A stretch of 64,000 nt of DNA from Oculatellaceae cyanobacterium bins.114. GTDB lineage: Bacteria > Cyanobacteriota > Cyanobacteriia > Elainellales > Elainellaceae. Numbering within the stretch: the stretch's first letter is position 1; the number at the start of each line of letters is the position of its first letter. Below are positions 17,272 to 26,901 of this stretch, in pieces. The stretch covers positions 21,794-85,793 of the forward strand of contig JANRJA010000065.1 in the NCBI GenBank assembly GCA_033764315.1. Reading direction: 5' to 3'. The position numbers and the translations under genes were made by a program. Below the pieces are notes generated by a model, which worked only from the letters and a program-made list of their open reading frames with translations, was not told the origin of the DNA and did not search any database.

Positions 17272-17374
17272 GGTTTATCCAGAGAGACGCGATTAATCGC
17301 GTTTGTCCTACTGATGGTTTGTCCTAACTGAATGGGCTATGGCTACAGTTAGCGATAAGTTAGCTACAACGATA

Positions 17375-17626
17375 TTTTGAGTGTGATTCAGATCACTTAG
17401 AGTTCCTTCGTTGCGGCTCAGAGTCCTTTCATTGCCACTTTGAGTGTGATTCAGATCACTTGGATTCCCTTCGTTGTCTTGTCGAGTTCTTCCGTTGCCG
17501 CTTTGAGTGTGATTCAGATCACTTGGATTCCCTTCGTTGCCGCTCAAAGTATCTTCGTTGGGAGTCAAAGTAACTCCGTTGACACTCTCGGCTGCTTCGA
17601 TGGCATTCAAAGAGGCTTCATTCCCG
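17375..17626. repeat. Array of 12 degenerate 21-nt units with 63-nt higher-order period
   Basis: Units parse at exactly 21 nt; (C/T)TTTGAGTGTGATTCAGATCA recurs at 17375, 17438 and 17501. Confidence 0.9.
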
Positions 17627-17777
17627 CTCGACATCACAAAATTCACTGAGTCTCTATCTCTAATGAGATGTTTTTCCAGTGCTGCTACGGAGTTACTGAT
17701 CTACTAATTAAGGGAATTTCAAGAGATAGGTAACGCACCCATAAACGGTGCATCTCAACATTCCAAGGAGTCAATTC

Positions 17778-18426: not shown

Positions 18427-18509
18427 TGAGTTTGGGATAAGGATTTTGGCGGTTGAAACCGCTGCTACACGAGCAAAACCAACCTGAGTCGGTTCAGTAA
18501 ATCTTTGAT
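18427..18509 (-). repeat. Partial copy of the MITE/REPIN-like element at 26735-26901, inverted
   Basis: 83 nt matching the reverse complement of 26814-26896 with 7 mismatches (hand alignment). Confidence 0.85.
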
Positions 18510-18571: not shown

Positions 18572-20716
18572 ATGACCCAACCGCCCACCTACGGCCCCCA
18601 CAACCCGCACCCGCTGTCAACGCTACGGACGGAACTGGTGTGGGAGGGCAAGTATGACGAGTATGGGCAGCGGCGGGAAGTGGATATTGCTGGGTGCGCC
18701 ATGCCGATGCAGCGAATTGAGAGCATTGATGAACCGCGACGGGCAGCGGCGGCAACGGGGCAGTTGGAGCTGTTTGAACAGCAAAACCCCAAGCAGGATG
18801 ACTTTCGCAATCGGCTGATCTGGGGTGACAACAAGCTGGTGATGGCATCGCTGTTGCAAGAGTTTAAGGGCAAGGTGGATCTGATTTATATTGACCCACC
18901 GTTTGATGTAGGTGCAGATTTTTCGATGAGTGTGGCGATCGGGGATGAGCAGGAAGCGATTGAAAAAGAGCAATCAACATTAGAAATGGTTGCTTATCGA
19001 GATATTTGGGGAAAAGGAACCGATTCTTTTCTGCAAATGATCTATGAACGACTTGTCCTTGCTAGAGAATTACTCACCGACAAAGGTTTGATATTTGTTC
19101 ATATCGGTTGGTTTGTATCTCATCAAGTCAAAGCAATAATTGATGATGTTTTTGGCAATAGCCAGTTCTTAAATCAAATTATTTGGAAAAGGCAAACAGC
19201 CCATAGTGATGTTGGTCAAGGTTCGCAGCATCTTGGACGTATTCATGATGTTATATTTCTGTATTCCAAGTCTGAGAATTTTACATGGAATATGCAGTAC
19301 CAGCCATATTCTGAGGAGTACATAAATTCTTTCTATAAACACATAGAGCCAGAAACAGGACGCAGATATCGACTTAGCGATACAACTGGCCCCGGAGGTG
19401 CTTCAAAGGGTAATCCGCGCTATGAATTCTTAGGAGTAACACGATATTGGCGATTTAAACAAGAACGCATGGAGGAGCTTTATAAACAGGGACGCATAGT
19501 TCAAACTAAACCAGGAACCGTTCCGCAACAAAAACGCTATTTAGATGAGATGTCAGGAGTACCTATCCAGGACCTATGGTTAGATATCAATACTGTCCAG
19601 CCTCAGTCATTAGAAAGACTTGGATATGAAACTCAAAAGCCAGAAACTCTTCTCGAACGAGTGATTTCTCTAGCTTCCAACGAGGGCGATCTGGTGGCAG
19701 ATTTCTTTTGTGGCAGTGGCACGACCGGGGCGGTTGCCGAGCGGTTGGGGCGCAGGTGGCTGATGTGTGACTTGGGGCGGTTTGCCATTCACACGTCGCG
19801 CAAGCGGATGATTGAGCTACAGCGCAAGCTGCACGGTGAGGGCAAACCCTATCGCGCCTTTGATGTCTATAACCTGGGACGCTATGAGCGGCAGTGGTGG
19901 CAAAAGGATCGCTTGCAGGGGGCAGATGCAGAACATCGACGGGTGATTCTGGAGTTCTTCAAAGCGGAGGTGCTGACCAACCCACCCTCTCCCTTGCTGC
20001 ATGGGCGCAAAGCCGGGGCATTTTGTCATGTGGATGGCATCGACTCGATGTTTACCCGCGAAGAAGCGAAACAGGTGGCGCAGGCAACGGCGCAGGCGGG
20101 TGGGCGCGAGTGTTATTGCCTCGCCTGGGAGTTTGAGATGGATTTGCATTTGCTGGTCAATGCCCTGACGCACGAGTTGGGCGTGAAGCTGAAGCTGGTG
20201 CAGATTCCCCGCGAGATTATGGAGAAGAATCGCAAGGCTCCACCGCCGTTTTTGGAAGTCGCTGTCCTCGCCGCCGAACCCGTCTACCGTAAAGCAACGA
20301 CTGAAGTCGTTACTACAAACAAGGCTCGTAGTGAGGACTTTAGACCTCAAACCGTTACTACAAACAAGGCTCGTAGTGAGGACTTTAGTCCTCAAACCCA
20401 CAGCGTAGATATCAAACTCACCCAGTTCCTCCCCTCCCTCGCCGAAGTGCCCACCAAAGAACTGGAAGCGATCAAAGAACGGGCGATCGCAAGCGGTTTT
20501 GATTTTATTGACTTCTGGGCGATCGATTTCCACTGGCAACCGGGCAAACCCTTTACCCACGACTGGCAAGACTACCGGACACGGAAGGATCGATCGCTCA
20601 AAACCATCAGCGATGCGAGCTACACCTATCCTGCTCCGGGCAAATACACCGCCTGCGTCAAAGTCGTCGATACCTTCGGCTGCGACACCTCGATTACCGT
20701 AGAGGTAGAAGTATGA
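18572..20716 (+). CDS. Type III-like R-M DNA methyltransferase (Mod, beta class)
   Basis: NRLIWGDN, IYIDPPF, YETQKPETLLERVI, DFFCGSGTT; upstream of a Res-like helicase. Confidence 0.9.
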   Translation: MTQPPTYGPHNPHPLSTLRTELVWEGKYDEYGQRREVDIAGCAMPMQRIESIDEPRRAAAATGQLELFEQQNPKQDDFRNRLIWGDNKLVMASLLQEFKGKVDLIYIDPPFDVGADFSMSVAIGDEQEAIEKEQSTLEMVAYRDIWGKGTDSFLQMIYERLVLARELLTDKGLIFVHIGWFVSHQVKAIIDDVFGNSQFLNQIIWKRQTAHSDVGQGSQHLGRIHDVIFLYSKSENFTWNMQYQPYSEEYINSFYKHIEPETGRRYRLSDTTGPGGASKGNPRYEFLGVTRYWRFKQERMEELYKQGRIVQTKPGTVPQQKRYLDEMSGVPIQDLWLDINTVQPQSLERLGYETQKPETLLERVISLASNEGDLVADFFCGSGTTGAVAERLGRRWLMCDLGRFAIHTSRKRMIELQRKLHGEGKPYRAFDVYNLGRYERQWWQKDRLQGADAEHRRVILEFFKAEVLTNPPSPLLHGRKAGAFCHVDGIDSMFTREEAKQVAQATAQAGGRECYCLAWEFEMDLHLLVNALTHELGVKLKLVQIPREIMEKNRKAPPPFLEVAVLAAEPVYRKATTEVVTTNKARSEDFRPQTVTTNKARSEDFSPQTHSVDIKLTQFLPSLAEVPTKELEAIKERAIASGFDFIDFWAIDFHWQPGKPFTHDWQDYRTRKDRSLKTISDASYTYPAPGKYTACVKVVDTFGCDTSITVEVEV
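20296..20397. repeat. In-frame REP-like cluster inside mod (3 hairpins, 45-bp tandem duplication)
   Basis: GTAG hairpins at 20296-20316(-), 20328-20349(+), 20373-20394(+); peptide TTEVVTTNKARSEDFRPQTVTTNKARSEDFSPQ. Confidence 0.9.
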
Positions 20717-20926
20717 ACATCGCCCGTAATGAGGTTCGTAGTGAGGACTTTAGTCCTCATGTTCCGGAGAGGTGGAAGTATGAACATCACTCGTAATGAG
20801 GTTCGTAGTGAGGACTTTAGTCCTCATGTTCCGGAGAGGTGGAAGTATGAACATCGCTCGTAATGAGGTTCGTAGTGAGGACTTTAGTCCTCATGTTCCG
20901 GAGAAAACGACTAAAGTCGTTACTAC
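20702..20926. repeat. 3 x 67-bp tandem repeat, each with a GTAG REP, plus one inverted REP
   Basis: Units start at 20702, 20769, 20836; GTAGTGAGGACTTTAGTCCTCA at 20738, 20805, 20872; inverted copy 20906-20926. Confidence 0.92.
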
Positions 20927-20952
20927 GAACGTTGAGGTTGGAGGTACTTGCC

Positions 20953-21687
20953 ATGTATGAGTATCGTCGGCTAACACCAGAGCAACGAGCCGAAATTGTT
21001 CAACAACGCTTAGCTAAGGGCTATCCACCCCACAGCCCACCTCACCCCATTCAGGATCAAGCGTTTTACTTGTTGACAGCAGCTTGCTACGAACATAAAT
21101 GCCATATTAAGAGTGAAGAACGACGCAAACAGCTTTTGGATTTGCTGTTTGAGCAGTTTACAGATCGTGGTGTTGAGCTACGAGGCTGGGTAATCTTGCC
21201 CAATCACTATCATGTGTTGGTTTATTTGGGTGATTTTGATGAGGGCTTAAGCCCTCACTACAAACAAGATAAACACGCTTGTAGTAAAGGCTTTAGCCCT
21301 TATGAACAAATAGGGAAAGTTTTACAACGAGTACACGGCTCTACATCTCGACAGTGGAACTTGGAAGATCACGCAGTCGGTCGGAAAGTTTGGTATGCCT
21401 ATAGCGATCGCGCTATTCGCTCTGAACGGCATTACTACACGACACTAAATTATATTCACTACAACCCAGTTAAACACGAATGGTCAAAATCACCCTATGA
21501 GTGGATTTGTAGTAGTGTGCATTGGTATTTGGAGCAGCAAGGACGTGATTTTTTACGGGATGCTTGGGTGCGCTATCCCATCAAAGACTATGGAAGAGAA
21601 TGGGATGAATTTTTAATGCCTGAACATGCCTCGCTAAAGCGAGAACTACAAACCTATTCAGGAGAAGACCTATGGCAGAGCGAATAA
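20953..21687 (+). CDS. REP-associated tyrosine transposase (RAYT, HUH Y1 / IS200-like)
   Basis: YLLTAAC, WVILPNHYH (HUH), DRAIRSE, NYIHYNPVKH, W..SS; GGAGG RBS before ATG 20953; adjacent GTAG hairpins. Confidence 0.9.
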   Translation: MYEYRRLTPEQRAEIVQQRLAKGYPPHSPPHPIQDQAFYLLTAACYEHKCHIKSEERRKQLLDLLFEQFTDRGVELRGWVILPNHYHVLVYLGDFDEGLSPHYKQDKHACSKGFSPYEQIGKVLQRVHGSTSRQWNLEDHAVGRKVWYAYSDRAIRSERHYYTTLNYIHYNPVKHEWSKSPYEWICSSVHWYLEQQGRDFLRDAWVRYPIKDYGREWDEFLMPEHASLKRELQTYSGEDLWQSE

Positions 21688-21896
21688 AAGTTTGGTTTGA
21701 CCCGGAAGCTGATTTTTTAGAGGTGATTTTCTCGGATGCTCCAGGCTATATGCAGGAAACCGAAAACGATGCCGTTATGGAGCGTGTCGATTTAGAGGGC
21801 AACCTGCTCGGCTTCTCCATTTTGGCGGTTAGTCAGCTTGCCAAATCAAAACCATTGATTGCGGAGTTGTTATCAGAAAGAGGAAGTGCGGCTTAG
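21672..21896 (+). CDS. DUF2283-like small protein
   Basis: KVWFDPEADFLEV...D.EGNLLGFSI pattern. Confidence 0.75.
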   Translation: MAERIKVWFDPEADFLEVIFSDAPGYMQETENDAVMERVDLEGNLLGFSILAVSQLAKSKPLIAELLSERGSAA

Positions 21897-21909
21897 AGGA
21901 GATGATGCA

Positions 21910-22251
21910 GTGGATAAGCTAGAAAACTATCGTCAGATCATTCAAAAGCTTCTGACTGACTATCAGCACTGGGCAATGGGTGCCAATCAGCCTGGAATTC
22001 AGCAATGTGTTGGCTTTGATGAAGAACACGACCACTATTTCTGGTTTCATGTGGGCTGGGATGGTAAGCGGCGAGATTTTGGAGTGACCGTTTACCTCCG
22101 CCTTGAAAACGGCAAAATTTGGATCGAAGAAGACTGGACAAAACAGGGCATCGCCAATGATGTACTAGAAGCTGGAGTCCCTGCCGAAGACATTGTTCTG
22201 GGCTTTCAGCATCCCAGCAAGCGTCCCCTGACAGAATTTGCTATTGCTTAA
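21910..22251 (+). CDS. xisI: XisI family protein
   Basis: DKLENYRQII, FDEEHDHY, GKIWIEEDWT, LEAGVP.EDIVLGF; probable GTG start. Confidence 0.88.
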   Translation: MDKLENYRQIIQKLLTDYQHWAMGANQPGIQQCVGFDEEHDHYFWFHVGWDGKRRDFGVTVYLRLENGKIWIEEDWTKQGIANDVLEAGVPAEDIVLGFQHPSKRPLTEFAIA

Positions 22252-22280
22252 TATTCACAATAATTGCAAGGAGGTAATTC

Positions 22281-22862
22281 GTGTCTACAGCAATCGAATT
22301 AAAAACTGATAAAAAGGTTTGGACAGATGAAGAATTTATGGCATTGCCTAAAGATGGGCATCGCTATGAGATCGTGAACGGAGAATTGGTTGACATGGGA
22401 AATTCAGGAGCATTGCATGGCAATCTTGCTATTATTCTAAGCTCTGCTCTTTTTGCTACTGTTAATGCTCAAAAACTAGGATCTTTGTTTGATTCTAGTA
22501 CCGCCTTCAAGATGAAAAATGATAATAAACGCTCTCCTGACATTTCCTTCTTTGCCAAAGAGCGTTTACAAGGCATGACCGAATTGCCAACTGGCTTCCT
22601 AGAAGGCGCACCTGATCTTGCGGTGGAAATTTTATCTCCTGGCAACACAGTAGAGGAGATAGAAACAAAAATTACTGAGTATTTTGACAATGGTGCCCGC
22701 TTAGTTTGGATGATTAGCCCAACTCAGCACTATGTCCTTGTCTACCGCTGTGCCCAAGAACCCGATCGCCTGCTGAAATCGGTTGATTCTCTGGATGGAG
22801 AAGAGGTGATTCCCGGATTTACGTTCCCCGTGGCTGATCTATTTCAAAAGCTCTCATTCTGA
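22281..22862 (+). CDS. Uma2 family (DUF820) endonuclease-fold protein
   Basis: YEIVNGEL, RSPDISF, APDLAVEILSPGN, Y..NGARLVW. Confidence 0.9.
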   Translation: MSTAIELKTDKKVWTDEEFMALPKDGHRYEIVNGELVDMGNSGALHGNLAIILSSALFATVNAQKLGSLFDSSTAFKMKNDNKRSPDISFFAKERLQGMTELPTGFLEGAPDLAVEILSPGNTVEEIETKITEYFDNGARLVWMISPTQHYVLVYRCAQEPDRLLKSVDSLDGEEVIPGFTFPVADLFQKLSF

Positions 22863-22867
22863 TTTTC

Positions 22868-25800
22868 ATGACCTCCTCCACCCTCAACCCCACCGTTCTC
22901 GAACCCCTGTTTGCCCCCTGGCAGGAACCCAACACCCATCGCGTTCGGGCAGAAAAATCCGGCGACCCCGCTGTAGTGAAACAGGGACGCAGAGCCTCCC
23001 CGATTGAGGTGGTCAATAACCTGCGAGCAGCCGTGCGAGAGTGGCGGGAAGCCTTTTACATCGGAGCCAGCGACACCACGATTCAACTGCTCAACCACTG
23101 GTTTAACCGCGCCCATCGCAAAATCACCCCCGATGGTGAAGAATTTGAGTTTCGTTACTACTTCTGTCAGCGAGAAGCTGTCGAAACCCTGATCTACCTT
23201 AAAGAAGTCCGTCGTATCGAATGCCTATCCCAAATCATTGCCGAATTTGGCGGCGTGAATGCCGAATTGCAGGCATTGGGCATCACCGAAGACGAAGATG
23301 CCTGGAGCCGCTATGCCTTCAAACTGGCAACCGGGGCAGGCAAAACTAAAGTCATGAGCCTGTGCATCGTCTGGAGCTACTTCCACGCCCTGCGAGAATC
23401 TGACTCGGAGATGGCGCGGCATTTTGTCGTGATCGCCCCCAACCTGACCGTTTACGAACGGCTCAAAGACGACTTTGCTAACGGGCGCGTGTTCGATGAA
23501 GACCCCCTGATTCCCCCAGAGTGGCGCGGCGACTGGAATTTATCTGTTGTTCTCCAGGACGAAGCCAGTGGTGCGGCAACGGGTGGAACCCTCTATCTCA
23601 CCAATATCCACCGCCTCTACGACACGTCTAAACGCAAAAAGAACGCTGACGAAGACAATTACACCTGGATGGGACCTGTGGTGTCTAAGTCAAAAGCTCT
23701 CGATACCGGAGCCGCTTTACGAGACAGAATCACCGCCCATCGTCGGGTCATGGTTCTCAACGACGAAGCCCACCACGTCTGGGATTCTGGCTCCGCCTGG
23801 AACGAAGCCATCCGTACCCTGCATGAAACCATCCTGGCTCGCAGCGGTTGCAAGCTGGTGGCACAACTCGACTTTTCCGCCACCCCCAAAGATAACAAGG
23901 GGCTATTGTTCAAACACATCGTTTGCGATACGCCCCTCGGTGAAGCAGTGGATGCCGGAATTGTCAAAACCCCACTAATTGGGCAAGCCAGCCGCAAGCT
24001 GGTCGAACAAGCCGACGACAACGCCGCCTATCGCTGGGAGCAGCATTTACTCTTGGGCTACGAACGCTGGAAAGCCAGCCAAGCCGAATGGCAAGCCAGT
24101 GGCAAAAAGCCGCTCCTGTTCATCATGTGCGATGACACCGATGCCGCCGATCAGATTACTCAACGCTTCAACACCGACCCACTGTTTGAGCAACTCAACG
24201 GCAAAACCATTAACTTGCACACTAACCTGAAGGGCAAGTTGAAAAAAGTGGGACGGGGGAAAGAGGCGCGATATGAATTTGTGGAAGACGAAAAAGCCAT
24301 CAGTGACGATGACCTGAAGGCATTGCGAAAACTCAGCCGAGAACTGGATAGCAACGCCAGTCCTTATTTCTGCATTGTCTCAGTGCTGATGCTGCGGGAA
24401 GGCTGGGACGTGCGAAATGTGACGACGATCGTGCCTCTGCGTCCCTATAGTTCCAAAGCCAACATCCTACCCGAACAAACCCTGGGGCGAGGCTTGCGCC
24501 GCATGACTCCCCCTGGTCAAGCCAATGAACTGGTGACGGTGGTAGAACATCCCGCCTTTGCCAGCCTCTATCAGCAAGAACTGGCACAGGAAGGCTTGCC
24601 CCTGGAAATTGTGGAACTCGATCGCGTTCCGGCTACAACGATTTCTATCTTCCCCGACGAAGTCCACAAGGATGTGAATACCCTGAATATCCAGATTCCC
24701 ACCCTTTCCGCTGGCTTTCGGATTGTTCCCAAGCTGGAAGGCTTAACGATTCAGGATGTGAAAAAAGCCTTTAAACCCTACAAACTGTTGCCGTTGGGGA
24801 TGACTAAAGTCATCACTACGAACGAGTTTGTAGTAACCACTCCAGTGGTTGATGAGACTACTGATGAGACGACTAAAGTCGTCACTACGAAAGAGTTTGT
24901 AGTAACCACTTCAGTGGTTGATGAGACTACTGATGAGACGACTAAAGTCGTCACTACGAACAATACGATCGCGTATGAGGGGCGGCATCTGTTTACGGGG
25001 GAAGTCGTCGAAAAAATGCAGTTGAATTTGCCGCTCCTGGAGTCGGGCATTGGCGCGGTTTCCTACTATGTCAAACAACTGGAAACTATTTGCAAGCTGC
25101 GGGGACTCCATCCCATCCTCGCTCCCCTGATTCAGACCTTTTTAGAAGAGATCTTGTTTGAGCAGAAAACTACATTGTTTGATCCGGTTCTGGTGGCTCG
25201 GTTAGCCGACTCTGATGTGGGCGAACATCTGCGGGCAGTGTTTGTGCCTCTAATTCGCAGCCGCACTACTACCTCAGAAGAACGGCTGATCGTCGAACCG
25301 CCCAAATCTCTCAACGCCTGGAAACCCTTTCAAGTCACCCTCAGTGAACGCCGTCCTGCCCTGGAAGCCGCAAAGACCCTGTTTAACCTCGTCACCTGCA
25401 ACCGAGAGTTAGAAGTAGCCGTAGCAAAGTTTTGCGATCGCGCCCCCGATGTGGCTGCCTTTGCCAAAAATGCCGGATCGCAGTGTTTGCGAGTGGACTA
25501 TCTCGCCAATGGCGATCGCCTCGCCTTCTATACCCCAGACTTCTTCATTCGTACCCTTGATAGTCACTACTACCTGGTCGAAACCAAAGGGCGAGAAGAT
25601 CGGGATGTGCCGTTGAAAGCCAAAGCGGCGATCGCTTGGTGCGAGGCTGCTTCTGGGGTGACGACTGAAGTCGCCACTACAAACCAAAACGTTCGTAGTG
25701 CTGACTTTAGTCAGCAAAAAGCAGGCACATGGCACTATCTCTACATTCCTCAAGGGGTCTTTGAACGGATGGCAGGTGATACCATTGCCGAACTTGCCCG

Positions 25801-26479
25801 CGCCTGTGCCCCCGCCTTACAAAACCTGCTCCAATCTGAGGAGTTTCAAGACTTGCCGCTGTTTGTAAATTTGGGACAGGTGGATGAAGAAGCCTCCGCT
25901 GTCGATAGCCTGATTGATCCAGCGATTCTCAATGCTCTGCCTTCTCGCTATCGCCGCGCCGCCGATCAAGCCGTTATGCTCTATCGCTTTTTTGAAAACA
26001 AAGAGGGCATGAATTATGCTCCTGTCTTTACCGCTCTACTCGGCTCGATTGACGAGGTGGCTAAAGGTTTCCTGGTAAGGCGATTGCAGCCAGAAATGCC
26101 CGTCACCGTGGATAGCCAAAAAGCCTGGTTTACTCCCTATTTGGGCAACGTAGACCGCAAATCAGAGGACTATTACCGCAAACTGGCACAAAATTTGAAA
26201 CGGACGTTAGTCTTCAATAATGGCTTGTCGCTGATTGGTTTGCTGCGATCGTGTCTAGACTATGCGCTGAATGACACCACAAAAATCGGGGGTGTATTCG
26301 AGGCGTTGCAAACTCAGTTACGGGTTCAGGGCGGACGCAAGTTTTTAGAAACTGTCACCCGTATCAACGACTTTCGGAACACCTACATTGCTCACCAGGA
26401 ACAAGAGTTAACCGATAAAAATTTAGCCGAGCAAGAACTCAAAATCTGGATCGAGGCATTGCATATGATTGGAAAATAA
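22868..26479 (+). CDS. Type III-like restriction subunit (SF2 helicase + PD-(D/E)xK nuclease)
   Basis: LATGAGKT, VLNDEAHH, FSATP, LREGWDV, EQTLGRGLR, YTPDF...LVETKG. Confidence 0.9.
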   Translation: MTSSTLNPTVLEPLFAPWQEPNTHRVRAEKSGDPAVVKQGRRASPIEVVNNLRAAVREWREAFYIGASDTTIQLLNHWFNRAHRKITPDGEEFEFRYYFCQREAVETLIYLKEVRRIECLSQIIAEFGGVNAELQALGITEDEDAWSRYAFKLATGAGKTKVMSLCIVWSYFHALRESDSEMARHFVVIAPNLTVYERLKDDFANGRVFDEDPLIPPEWRGDWNLSVVLQDEASGAATGGTLYLTNIHRLYDTSKRKKNADEDNYTWMGPVVSKSKALDTGAALRDRITAHRRVMVLNDEAHHVWDSGSAWNEAIRTLHETILARSGCKLVAQLDFSATPKDNKGLLFKHIVCDTPLGEAVDAGIVKTPLIGQASRKLVEQADDNAAYRWEQHLLLGYERWKASQAEWQASGKKPLLFIMCDDTDAADQITQRFNTDPLFEQLNGKTINLHTNLKGKLKKVGRGKEARYEFVEDEKAISDDDLKALRKLSRELDSNASPYFCIVSVLMLREGWDVRNVTTIVPLRPYSSKANILPEQTLGRGLRRMTPPGQANELVTVVEHPAFASLYQQELAQEGLPLEIVELDRVPATTISIFPDEVHKDVNTLNIQIPTLSAGFRIVPKLEGLTIQDVKKAFKPYKLLPLGMTKVITTNEFVVTTPVVDETTDETTKVVTTKEFVVTTSVVDETTDETTKVVTTNNTIAYEGRHLFTGEVVEKMQLNLPLLESGIGAVSYYVKQLETICKLRGLHPILAPLIQTFLEEILFEQKTTLFDPVLVARLADSDVGEHLRAVFVPLIRSRTTTSEERLIVEPPKSLNAWKPFQVTLSERRPALEAAKTLFNLVTCNRELEVAVAKFCDRAPDVAAFAKNAGSQCLRVDYLANGDRLAFYTPDFFIRTLDSHYYLVETKGREDRDVPLKAKAAIAWCEAASGVTTEVATTNQNVRSADFSQQKAGTWHYLYIPQGVFERMAGDTIAELARACAPALQNLLQSEEFQDLPLFVNLGQVDEEASAVDSLIDPAILNALPSRYRRAADQAVMLYRFFENKEGMNYAPVFTALLGSIDEVAKGFLVRRLQPEMPVTVDSQKAWFTPYLGNVDRKSEDYYRKLAQNLKRTLVFNNGLSLIGLLRSCLDYALNDTTKIGGVFEALQTQLRVQGGRKFLETVTRINDFRNTYIAHQEQELTDKNLAEQELKIWIEALHMIGK
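24799..24957. repeat. In-frame REP-like cluster inside res (5 alternating hairpins, 69-bp period)
   Basis: Hairpins at 24799(-), 24830(+), 24868(-), 24899(+), 24937(-); Thr/Val-rich peptide insert. Confidence 0.92.
25660..25716. repeat. Second in-frame REP pair inside res
   Basis: 25660-25680(-) and GTAGTGCTGACTTTAGTCAGCA at 25695-25716(+). Confidence 0.88.
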
Positions 26480-26734: not shown

Positions 26735-26901
26735 TAACGTCAGTTCGGTTTAAGCAGCCCAGCGAATCAATTCGCGACTACCAGAGCAAAGTCCGCCGTC
26801 GCGGACTACCAACATCAAAGATTGACTGAACCGACGCAAGTCGGTTTTGCTTGTGTAGCAGCGGTTTCAACCGCCAAAATCCTTATCCTGAACTCAGGTT
26901 A
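26735..26901. mobile_element. ~167-bp MITE/REPIN-like non-autonomous element
   Basis: Imperfect TIRs TAACGTCAGTTCGG / CCTGAACTCAGGTTA, TA ends, two opposed GTAG hairpins inside; partial second copy at 18427. Confidence 0.6.

Follow-up and report, generated by a model that had tools for sequence, protein, structure and literature searches.

GTAG-tagged hairpins and a RAYT in a cyanobacterial type III restriction-modification operon: in-frame inserts at shared protein loops

The operon and its hairpin units

A 64,000-nucleotide stretch of contig JANRJA010000065.1 from Oculatellaceae cyanobacterium bins.114 (the window) carries a predicted type III restriction-modification (R-M) operon in the order mod, RAYT, DUF2283, XisI, Uma2, res (Table 1). 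The RAYT gene encodes a putative REP-associated tyrosine transposase, and short hairpins with the GTAG tag of repetitive extragenic palindromic (REP) elements are written in frame into Mod, RAYT and Res. Alignment with homologs shows the REP peptides as variable indels at fixed sites. Homologs carry hairpin families unrelated to this one, or an entire DUF559 nuclease, at those loops, an observation that is new here.

Table 1. Features of the operon, in positions of the window.
Feature	Position	Strand	Remarks
Type III Mod methyltransferase	18584..20716	+	710 aa from ATG 18584; 717 aa from GTG 18563
Mod site ~577: REP doublet and 45-bp duplication (3 hairpins, 1 half)	20293..20396		+31 aa replacing a beta-turn
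Three 67-bp tandem units, then one inverted REP	20704..20930	+	Sequence, comparison with relatives
Bridge open reading frame, REP-encoded, 37 aa	20847..20960	+	Ends at RAYT start
RAYT / TnpA-REP with subclass 2.8 motifs	20953..21687	+	NF047646, PDB 4ER8, alignment
REP doublet in frame within RAYT	21238..21304		Between HUH and Tyr motifs; about +22 to 25 aa versus Nostoc homologs
Terminal REP	21626..21653	-	Read through as RAYT C-terminal tail
Passenger genes: DUF2283 21672-21896; XisI about 21910-22251; Uma2 22281-22862	21672..22862	+	
Res subunit, type III	22868..26479	+	1203 aa; PF04851; PADLOC REase_III
Res site ~645: five REPs including a 69-bp tandem duplication	24796..24961		+50 aa
Res site ~930: REP doublet	25657..25718		+20 aa, beyond nuclease-like motif

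Mod contains PF01555, scores 710 bits against the PADLOC model MTase_III, retains DPPF and FCGSG motifs and has EcoP15I (4zcf) as its top fold match (E 2e-21). Res scores 275.7 bits against NF046055, below the cut-off of 800, and a fold search with a model of its C-terminal part gave no match at E<=0.001. A Mod with intact motifs upstream of a predicted helicase-nuclease Res is the arrangement expected of a type III system. The RAYT shows NHYH, WY and YIHYNP motifs by alignment and a Pro-rich N-terminus (GYPPHSPPHP), matches E. coli TnpA-REP (PDB 4ER8) at E 1e-8, and scores 78.6 bits against NF047646, just under the cut-off of 80. It is the single match in the source genome at E<=1e-25. Both the HIP1 density (1.6 per kb) and the nearest named homologs mark the host as a cyanobacterium. 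These properties agree with the sequence definition of TnpA-Y1 subclass 2.8 (NHYH, W[YH], YIHYNP, Pro-rich N-terminus, cyanobacterial, single copy; Table 1 of PMC6006769, available in excerpt), whereas the flanking GTAG REPs have short stems of 6-8 bp and the subclass is described with "long" REPs. All three units that the first-pass annotation placed in the RAYT lie in its frame, but the third forms a C-terminal read-through tail and is not an internal insert. The source genome has 11 further RAYT profile matches, five of them above cut-off (contigs C187, C100, C200, C29, C134, C172 and C202).

The 17 hairpin units listed in that annotation were all recovered where it had placed them, with GTAG at 20328, 20373, 20738, 20805, 20872, 21281, 24830, 24899 and 25695 on the plus strand and at 20316, 20926, 21261, 21649, 24819, 24888, 24957 and 25680 on the minus strand. 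Where 0.19 matches were expected, a search of the window for GYTYGTAGTN5CTNNAG with at most one mismatch yielded 18, a number that 0 of 100 shuffles reached; the 18th (20346-20365) is a half unit from the 45-bp duplication within mod. No units had been noticed elsewhere, and the family is indeed confined to the operon, both within the window and within the 6.64-Mb source genome (G000; 251 contigs, 90.7% complete). The exact motif has 17 matches in this genome, 16 at the operon and one non-hairpin elsewhere; a reversed-pattern control has two, and a structure-based scan allowing one mismatch has 25, of which 17 are at the operon. Whole-genome scans thereby rule out a motif equally dense across the genome. 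Other GTAG hairpin families also occur in G000, and seven copies of a different GTAG hairpin repeat with a conserved tail were seen on contigs C40, C53, C84, C90, C155, C209 and C250.

Each unit has the form GTTY-GTAG-T-N5-CT-TY-AG-N5' (25-26 nt) and folds into a short stem of 6-7 bp with a 4-nt loop, rather than the 2-nt loop first described. Conservation of structure through compensatory changes was confirmed by covariation among 15 distinct copies, where pairing holds in 94% of stem cells and 21 cells are altered on both sides, values that none of 500 shuffles matched, and both-side changes occur at five of eight pairs, with a covariation score of 0.55 (reached by 0 of 500 shuffles). Slid controls pair at 12-49%, a comparison that favors the structure because it was derived from these same sequences, and the outermost pair is broken in 5 of the 15 copies. 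The 5' GTTY belongs to the unit, its four positions being conserved at 92/79/97/95% among 242 distinct copies that a pattern not including it had collected from related loci. The units thus show the marks of GTAG-tagged REPs, the tag preceding a conserved hairpin on its 5' side and the frequent pairing of units as inverted doublets; the extragenic, genome-dispersed habit of REPs is absent from the source genome but is seen for the same family in genomes G444, G457, G460 and G462.

Inserts at fixed sites in Mod and Res

As first annotated, the mod, RAYT and res frames are uninterrupted by the coding copies. Most homologs lack the peptides, which rules them out as conserved protein sequence. At Mod ~577 there are 53 aa, compared with 22 aa in empty homologs. 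At Res ~645, 77 aa stand against 27-28 aa in 112 of 120 homologs, the remainder being four GTAG-type proteins and four with a Pro/Gly-rich peptide of another hairpin repeat, and at Res ~930, 41 aa stand against 21 aa in 92 of 120, the others comprising one 25-aa form, 11 of GTAG type and 16 of another repeat type. Mapped on AlphaFold models (mean predicted local distance difference test score, pLDDT, 64 for Mod and 71 for Res), all three inserts fall in coil loops modeled with low confidence, with pLDDT <50 at Mod 580-611, between strands 568-576 and 614-623, and at Res 644-697 and 933-951. Low pLDDT is weak evidence of disorder here, since it is expected where most alignment rows lack the sequence. 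The variable target-recognition region of Mod (about residues 208-355) lies far from the inserts. At the DNA level the inserts substitute for a few codons and share no common duplication; a general CT cleavage or target-duplication signature at the junctions was considered and rejected, having been seen by eye at one Mod junction only.

Among 120 Mod matches (including the window protein), site ~577 is empty in 39 and holds GTAG inserts in 18, DUF559-linked repeats in 44, a third type in 8 and other sequence in 11; eight of the 44 DUF559-linked alleles have the whole DUF559 domain in frame between two repeat copies. Outside cyanobacteria, the standard Mod loop was found in 49 of 58 assessable loci (72 loci in all), and a further hairpin family sits as an in-frame doublet at 577 in loci L064 and L072. 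Also outside cyanobacteria, L063 (560-2300) combines an empty mod, hairpin repeats and a repeat doublet of the L064/L072 type with a second copy of the mod 3' end, which begins at site 577, and with a distant NHYH-type RAYT in reverse orientation (22% identical); the direction of events there cannot be told from the sequence. At Res ~645, the flank [TV]IE is common to filled alleles from two repeat families (7/8 filled versus 0/86 empty proteins), which suggests that one hairpin family overwrote another. A one-clade origin of GTAG-type Mod was rejected by the approximately unbiased (AU) test (p=0.004) on a quick tree with inserts removed, using 102 rows and excluding 17 distant rows and P0237. 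Recombination among alleles could yield the same result, which is therefore no count of insertion events.

Inserts were also observed at two other sites. Near Mod ~383, an insert from the ADFF/C position in motif I carries a DUF559 domain (P0160, P0125, L004, L118, L121 and L197), together with a Pro/Gly-rich repeat peptide in P0160 and L118; we take it to resemble an intein. At Res ~89, a fourth site in that protein, 7-10-aa Gly-rich inserts that are probably repeat-derived occur in P0001, P0015, P0033, P0036, P0041, P0050 and P0072.

Bridge frame, rearrangement and distribution

The four units between mod and RAYT had been called intergenic. They do lie between the two genes, but within short open reading frames (ORFs): each 67-bp unit consists of the last mod codons, a start signal and one REP, and two overlapping 27-aa ORFs (20713-20796 and 20780-20863) form a relay from the mod stop. 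The bridge ORF begins on the mod stop (ATGA) and ends 5 nt inside the RAYT gene. Of 13 loci examined, 10 keep this frame open and in one register, at lengths of 33, 36, 37, 47 and 93 codons; the exceptions are L131, where it is open and ends further in, L041, where there is no overlap, and L201, where it is fused to a truncated RAYT. Two expansions, of 67 bp here and of 121 bp in L001, have lengths not divisible by three, and the relay was kept because both copied the mod 3' end with its start signal. The REPs between mod and RAYT are probably translated too, and the pattern fits selection for unbroken translation through the operon. An open bridge ORF running from mod stop to RAYT start in 10 related loci is new here. 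A RAYT locus without res (L002:7680-7910) retains a mod 3' end remnant and the bridge ORF and therefore derives from the operon.

Local recombination, as had been proposed, is visible in relatives as copy-number changes, unit swaps and a REP-to-REP deletion. REP copy number differs at every site; in L001 a Mod-type unit lies inside Res 930 and the first Res-645 hairpin has a different, fully paired stem, and in L201 a deletion from the upstream REP to a RAYT-internal REP removed the RAYT 5' half. The gene behind the terminal REP is DUF2283, XisI or another, with the sequence switching right at the GTTY edge, and upstream passenger genes stop within a few bases of a REP GTTY edge. That passenger genes change at the REP 5' edge is new here. 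Contigs of relatives also contain joints from which the RAYT region or a single 69-bp unit is missing; coming from other organisms, they say nothing on variation in the source strain, for which no sequencing run contained more than 7% of the sequence words and no matching RNA run was listed. In L004 the insert underwent a frameshifting expansion, and res is broken as well. Arrays whose units consist of a mod 5' fragment (up to about 130 codons) plus passenger genes, several with a hairpin, lie upstream of intact mod in L198 (1-4550), L201 (4600-6930), L004 (3030-4050) and L197 (4010-5070), and arrays in which no GTAG hairpin was detected lie in L129 (5540-6340), L130 (8880-10000) and L076 (1190-2690). 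Their passengers are DUF29, DUF6883 with DUF4926, a DUF2283 pair and HepT-like pairs, and the arrays look like serial cassette capture at the mod start.

Within the order, this RAYT was found in 4 of 57 genomes, each time between mod and res; a sample of 401 genomes from the class yielded 25 with a match. R-M-linked RAYTs occur under seven cyanobacterial family codes, and the type III operon itself is patchily distributed among cyanobacteria. The peptides track the RAYT: a GTAG insert in Mod or Res is present in 11 of 12 RAYT-bearing versus 1 of 11 RAYT-less cyanobacterial operons, where RAYT-less operons were counted only with the mod end and res start both in view and truncated or fragmentary loci (L043, L100, L120, L122/L155, L124, L125 and L127) were excluded. 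The Res sites, 1-4 kb from the RAYT, behave alike: GTAG inserts occupy site 645 in 6/8 RAYT-bearing versus 0/9 RAYT-less operons, site 930 in 5/8 versus 0/6, and site 30, empty in the window, in 5/12 versus 0/11. On the res tree, RAYT presence is scattered (9 changes). Outside R-M operons, subclass-2.8 RAYTs are flanked by the same REP family, which supports the hairpins as the cognate REPs of this RAYT. The family is then often genome-wide, with 14-170 matches in G457-G460 and G462 (73 in G457, 109 in G460, 170 in G462) and none with that pattern in G456; 0 of 44 matches in 19 hand-picked non-R-M regions fall within an ORF of >=150 aa. Regular tandem arrays of the family, with periods of about 94 and 103 bp, adjoin such RAYTs in L207 (8480-8880) and L208 (2456-3940).

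The passenger genes differ among related operons, and no invertase or integrase of the kind that marks shufflons, phase-variable R-M systems or integrons was found among the operon ORFs. A repeat of about 65 bp has inverted copies on either side of the operon (18436-18500 and 26825-26887); as operon ends these were rejected, the repeat being a genome-wide family with 92 matches of >=45 nt. Just upstream of the operon, a minus-strand ORF (17308-17646) encodes 112 aa of repeated NEG..SDLNHTQ units.

Interpretation and comparison with known systems

We lean, with some reserve, towards a reading in which the RAYT seeds and recombines REPs locally while selection keeps only translation-neutral copies. 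The operon would carry a subclass-2.8 RAYT as one among several exchangeable passengers, and we infer this enzyme to be the maker of the insertions: judging from E. coli and Stenotrophomonas biochemistry, it may cut and rejoin single-stranded DNA near REPs and so drop REP doublets nearby. Because the operon has almost no spare DNA, only translation-preserving copies would survive, whether placed within disordered loops of the Mod, Res and RAYT proteins or forming a bridge ORF that couples mod to RAYT. Resident REPs could then serve as recombination points for tandem expansion, unit swaps, deletions and passenger exchange at the REP 5' edge, and an occupied loop could be overwritten by another hairpin family. 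The peptides would be tolerated passengers with no function of their own.

Several observations weigh against this reading. The RAYT/insert link is strong in counts but statistically unproven, since only four independent pairs lie on well-supported branches, about three going the same way and none the opposite (p 0.25), and simple hitch-hiking can account for the linkage at Mod 577, which lies about 400 bp away from the RAYT. L131 has the RAYT and no GTAG insert; L121, a complete genome without such a RAYT, has a GTAG insert with one tag decayed; and G444 (92% complete) has 73 copies and no such RAYT found at E<=1e-25. Given the close similarity of orthologous inserts, most would stem from few insertion events, and insert junctions are replacements with no shared CT or duplication signature. 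Indel-tolerant Res sites (203-207, 251-259 and 920-936 in P0011 numbering) hold no large insert, so tolerance alone may not explain site choice.

Palindrome-correcting template switches are a source of repeat variation. Together with slippage and short-homology recombination they could account for the present variation if the REPs were relics that entered in an earlier host with a genome-wide family and the resident RAYT were a hitch-hiker. We consider this unlikely, but it accords with the genome-wide family of other cyanobacteria (73, 73, 109 and 170 matches in G444, G457, G460 and G462), with near-identical orthologous inserts between genomes, with a short AGA microhomology at the 67-bp duplication and with junctions that bear no clear cleavage signature. 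It is harder to square with GTAG inserts at distant Res sites being seen only in RAYT-bearing operons, with gene junctions clustering at the REP 5' edge, and with GTAG being intact in 73 of 78 coding copies, a proportion biased by the one-mismatch tag search that yielded it. We are more doubtful still that hairpin/nuclease pairs (the RAYT with GTAG REPs, and DUF559 and a second RAYT each with repeats of their own) are retained because they enable the R-M locus to take up and trade gene cassettes, probably by way of excised circles that re-enter through homology to mod ends. Operons lacking this RAYT also have mod-fragment arrays, mod or res is broken in many RAYT-bearing operons (L004, L005, L118, L197, L198, L201), and the window has no upstream array; such a role would nevertheless suit the mod-fragment/passenger/hairpin arrays before intact mod in L198, L201, L004 and L197, the similar arrays with no GTAG hairpin detected in L129, L130 and L076, the L063 configuration, whose doublet is in frame at 577 in L064/L072, and the 8 of 120 Mod homologs whose site 577 carries a repeat-flanked DUF559 in frame.

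The functional peptide diversification suggested by the first-pass annotation fares worst. Loop variation might tune Mod and Res surfaces, for example against anti-restriction proteins, or provide a frameshift off-switch, and site 577 is highly occupied (70 of 120 Mod homologs: GTAG 18, DUF559-type 44, third type 8). The inserts, however, lie outside and far from the target-recognition region, in loops predicted to be disordered, and are interchangeable with unrelated Pro/Gly-rich repeat peptides; the frameshifting expansion in L004, which an off-switch would lead one to expect, argues against useful peptides and fits decay, since res is also broken. Adaptive variation of this kind seems to us very improbable. 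A broader proposal, which we offer tentatively and think unlikely, is that a few loops and gene junctions serve as common docking sites for two RAYT types and DUF559, which would insert there, overwrite one another and swap passengers. The locus would then be an integron-like cassette platform driven by single-strand hairpin nucleases, in which a REP-encoded leader peptide ties RAYT expression to mod. If true, it would give RAYTs a testable host function.

The locus bears on the role of RAYTs for their hosts and on the route of REP insertion. It offers a clean system for testing RAYT-dependent insertion and recombination: matched empty, filled and overwritten alleles occur at the same codons of enzymes that share 80-95% identity, only one enzyme is a candidate, and the genome has no further copies of the repeat. 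It also suggests that a RAYT can travel inside a defense operon, and it points to loops at which type III enzymes tolerate inserts of 20-180 aa. A literature search that left subscription papers aside found nothing on RAYT or REP inserts in R-M operons, on loops shared by several hairpin families or on DUF559-linked repeats.

Small dispersed repeats of cyanobacteria, reportedly treated by Elhai in 2008, are said to include small palindromes in frame in protein genes. For other known systems, we draw on excerpts of the papers cited. The closest enzymes are TnpA-Y1 subclasses 2.8 and 2.4 (Quentin et al., 2018; PMC6006769), which share NHYH, W[YH], YIHYNP and a Pro-rich N-terminus, are cyanobacterial and have GT[AG]G REPs as flanks. 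Some 2.8 RAYT genes carry a REP insertion, and 2.4 genes have in-frame REPs between the HUH and Tyr motifs (PMC6006769). In contrast to the short perfect stems in the window, the 2.8 REPs are long, and the passages searched mention no R-M setting for either subclass (PMC6006769). Other TnpA-REP enzymes were shown to cut and rejoin single strands near REPs (PMC3333891, PMC8266576). The E. coli REPtron, with its bacterial interspersed mosaic elements (BIMEs), and group 3 REP-RAYT systems resemble the present case in the HUH Y1 enzyme, the GTAG 5' of the hairpin, inverted doublets and local tandem amplification, S. maltophilia REPs likewise have short perfect stems (8 bp), and E. coli tnpA-REP shows precise loss or replacement by hicAB (PMC3333891, PMC8266576). 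In those systems, however, REPs are intergenic and the REPtron is at one locus (PMC3333891, PMC8266576), while the window RAYT belongs to an R-M operon found under at least seven cyanobacterial family codes and its REPs are in coding frame.

Intragenic GTAG REPs have been described that add 20-82 aa in frame as single units, dimers or clusters; they are enriched among genes for DNA processing, one of them an O. terrae N-6 DNA methylase gene, and different REPs lie at about the same recB site in two Xanthomonas species (Di Nocera et al., 2013; PMC3733652). Those families are genome-wide with a minority of copies coding (PMC3733652), whereas here all copies are in one operon beside the RAYT and at least three unrelated families share the same loops. 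Rickettsia palindromic elements (cited in PMC3733652) are also small palindromes in frame within protein genes, but, like the small dispersed repeats, they are genome-wide, and the excerpts describe no adjacent mobilizing enzyme. In-frame REPs are already known; the shared use of fixed loops looks less well described.

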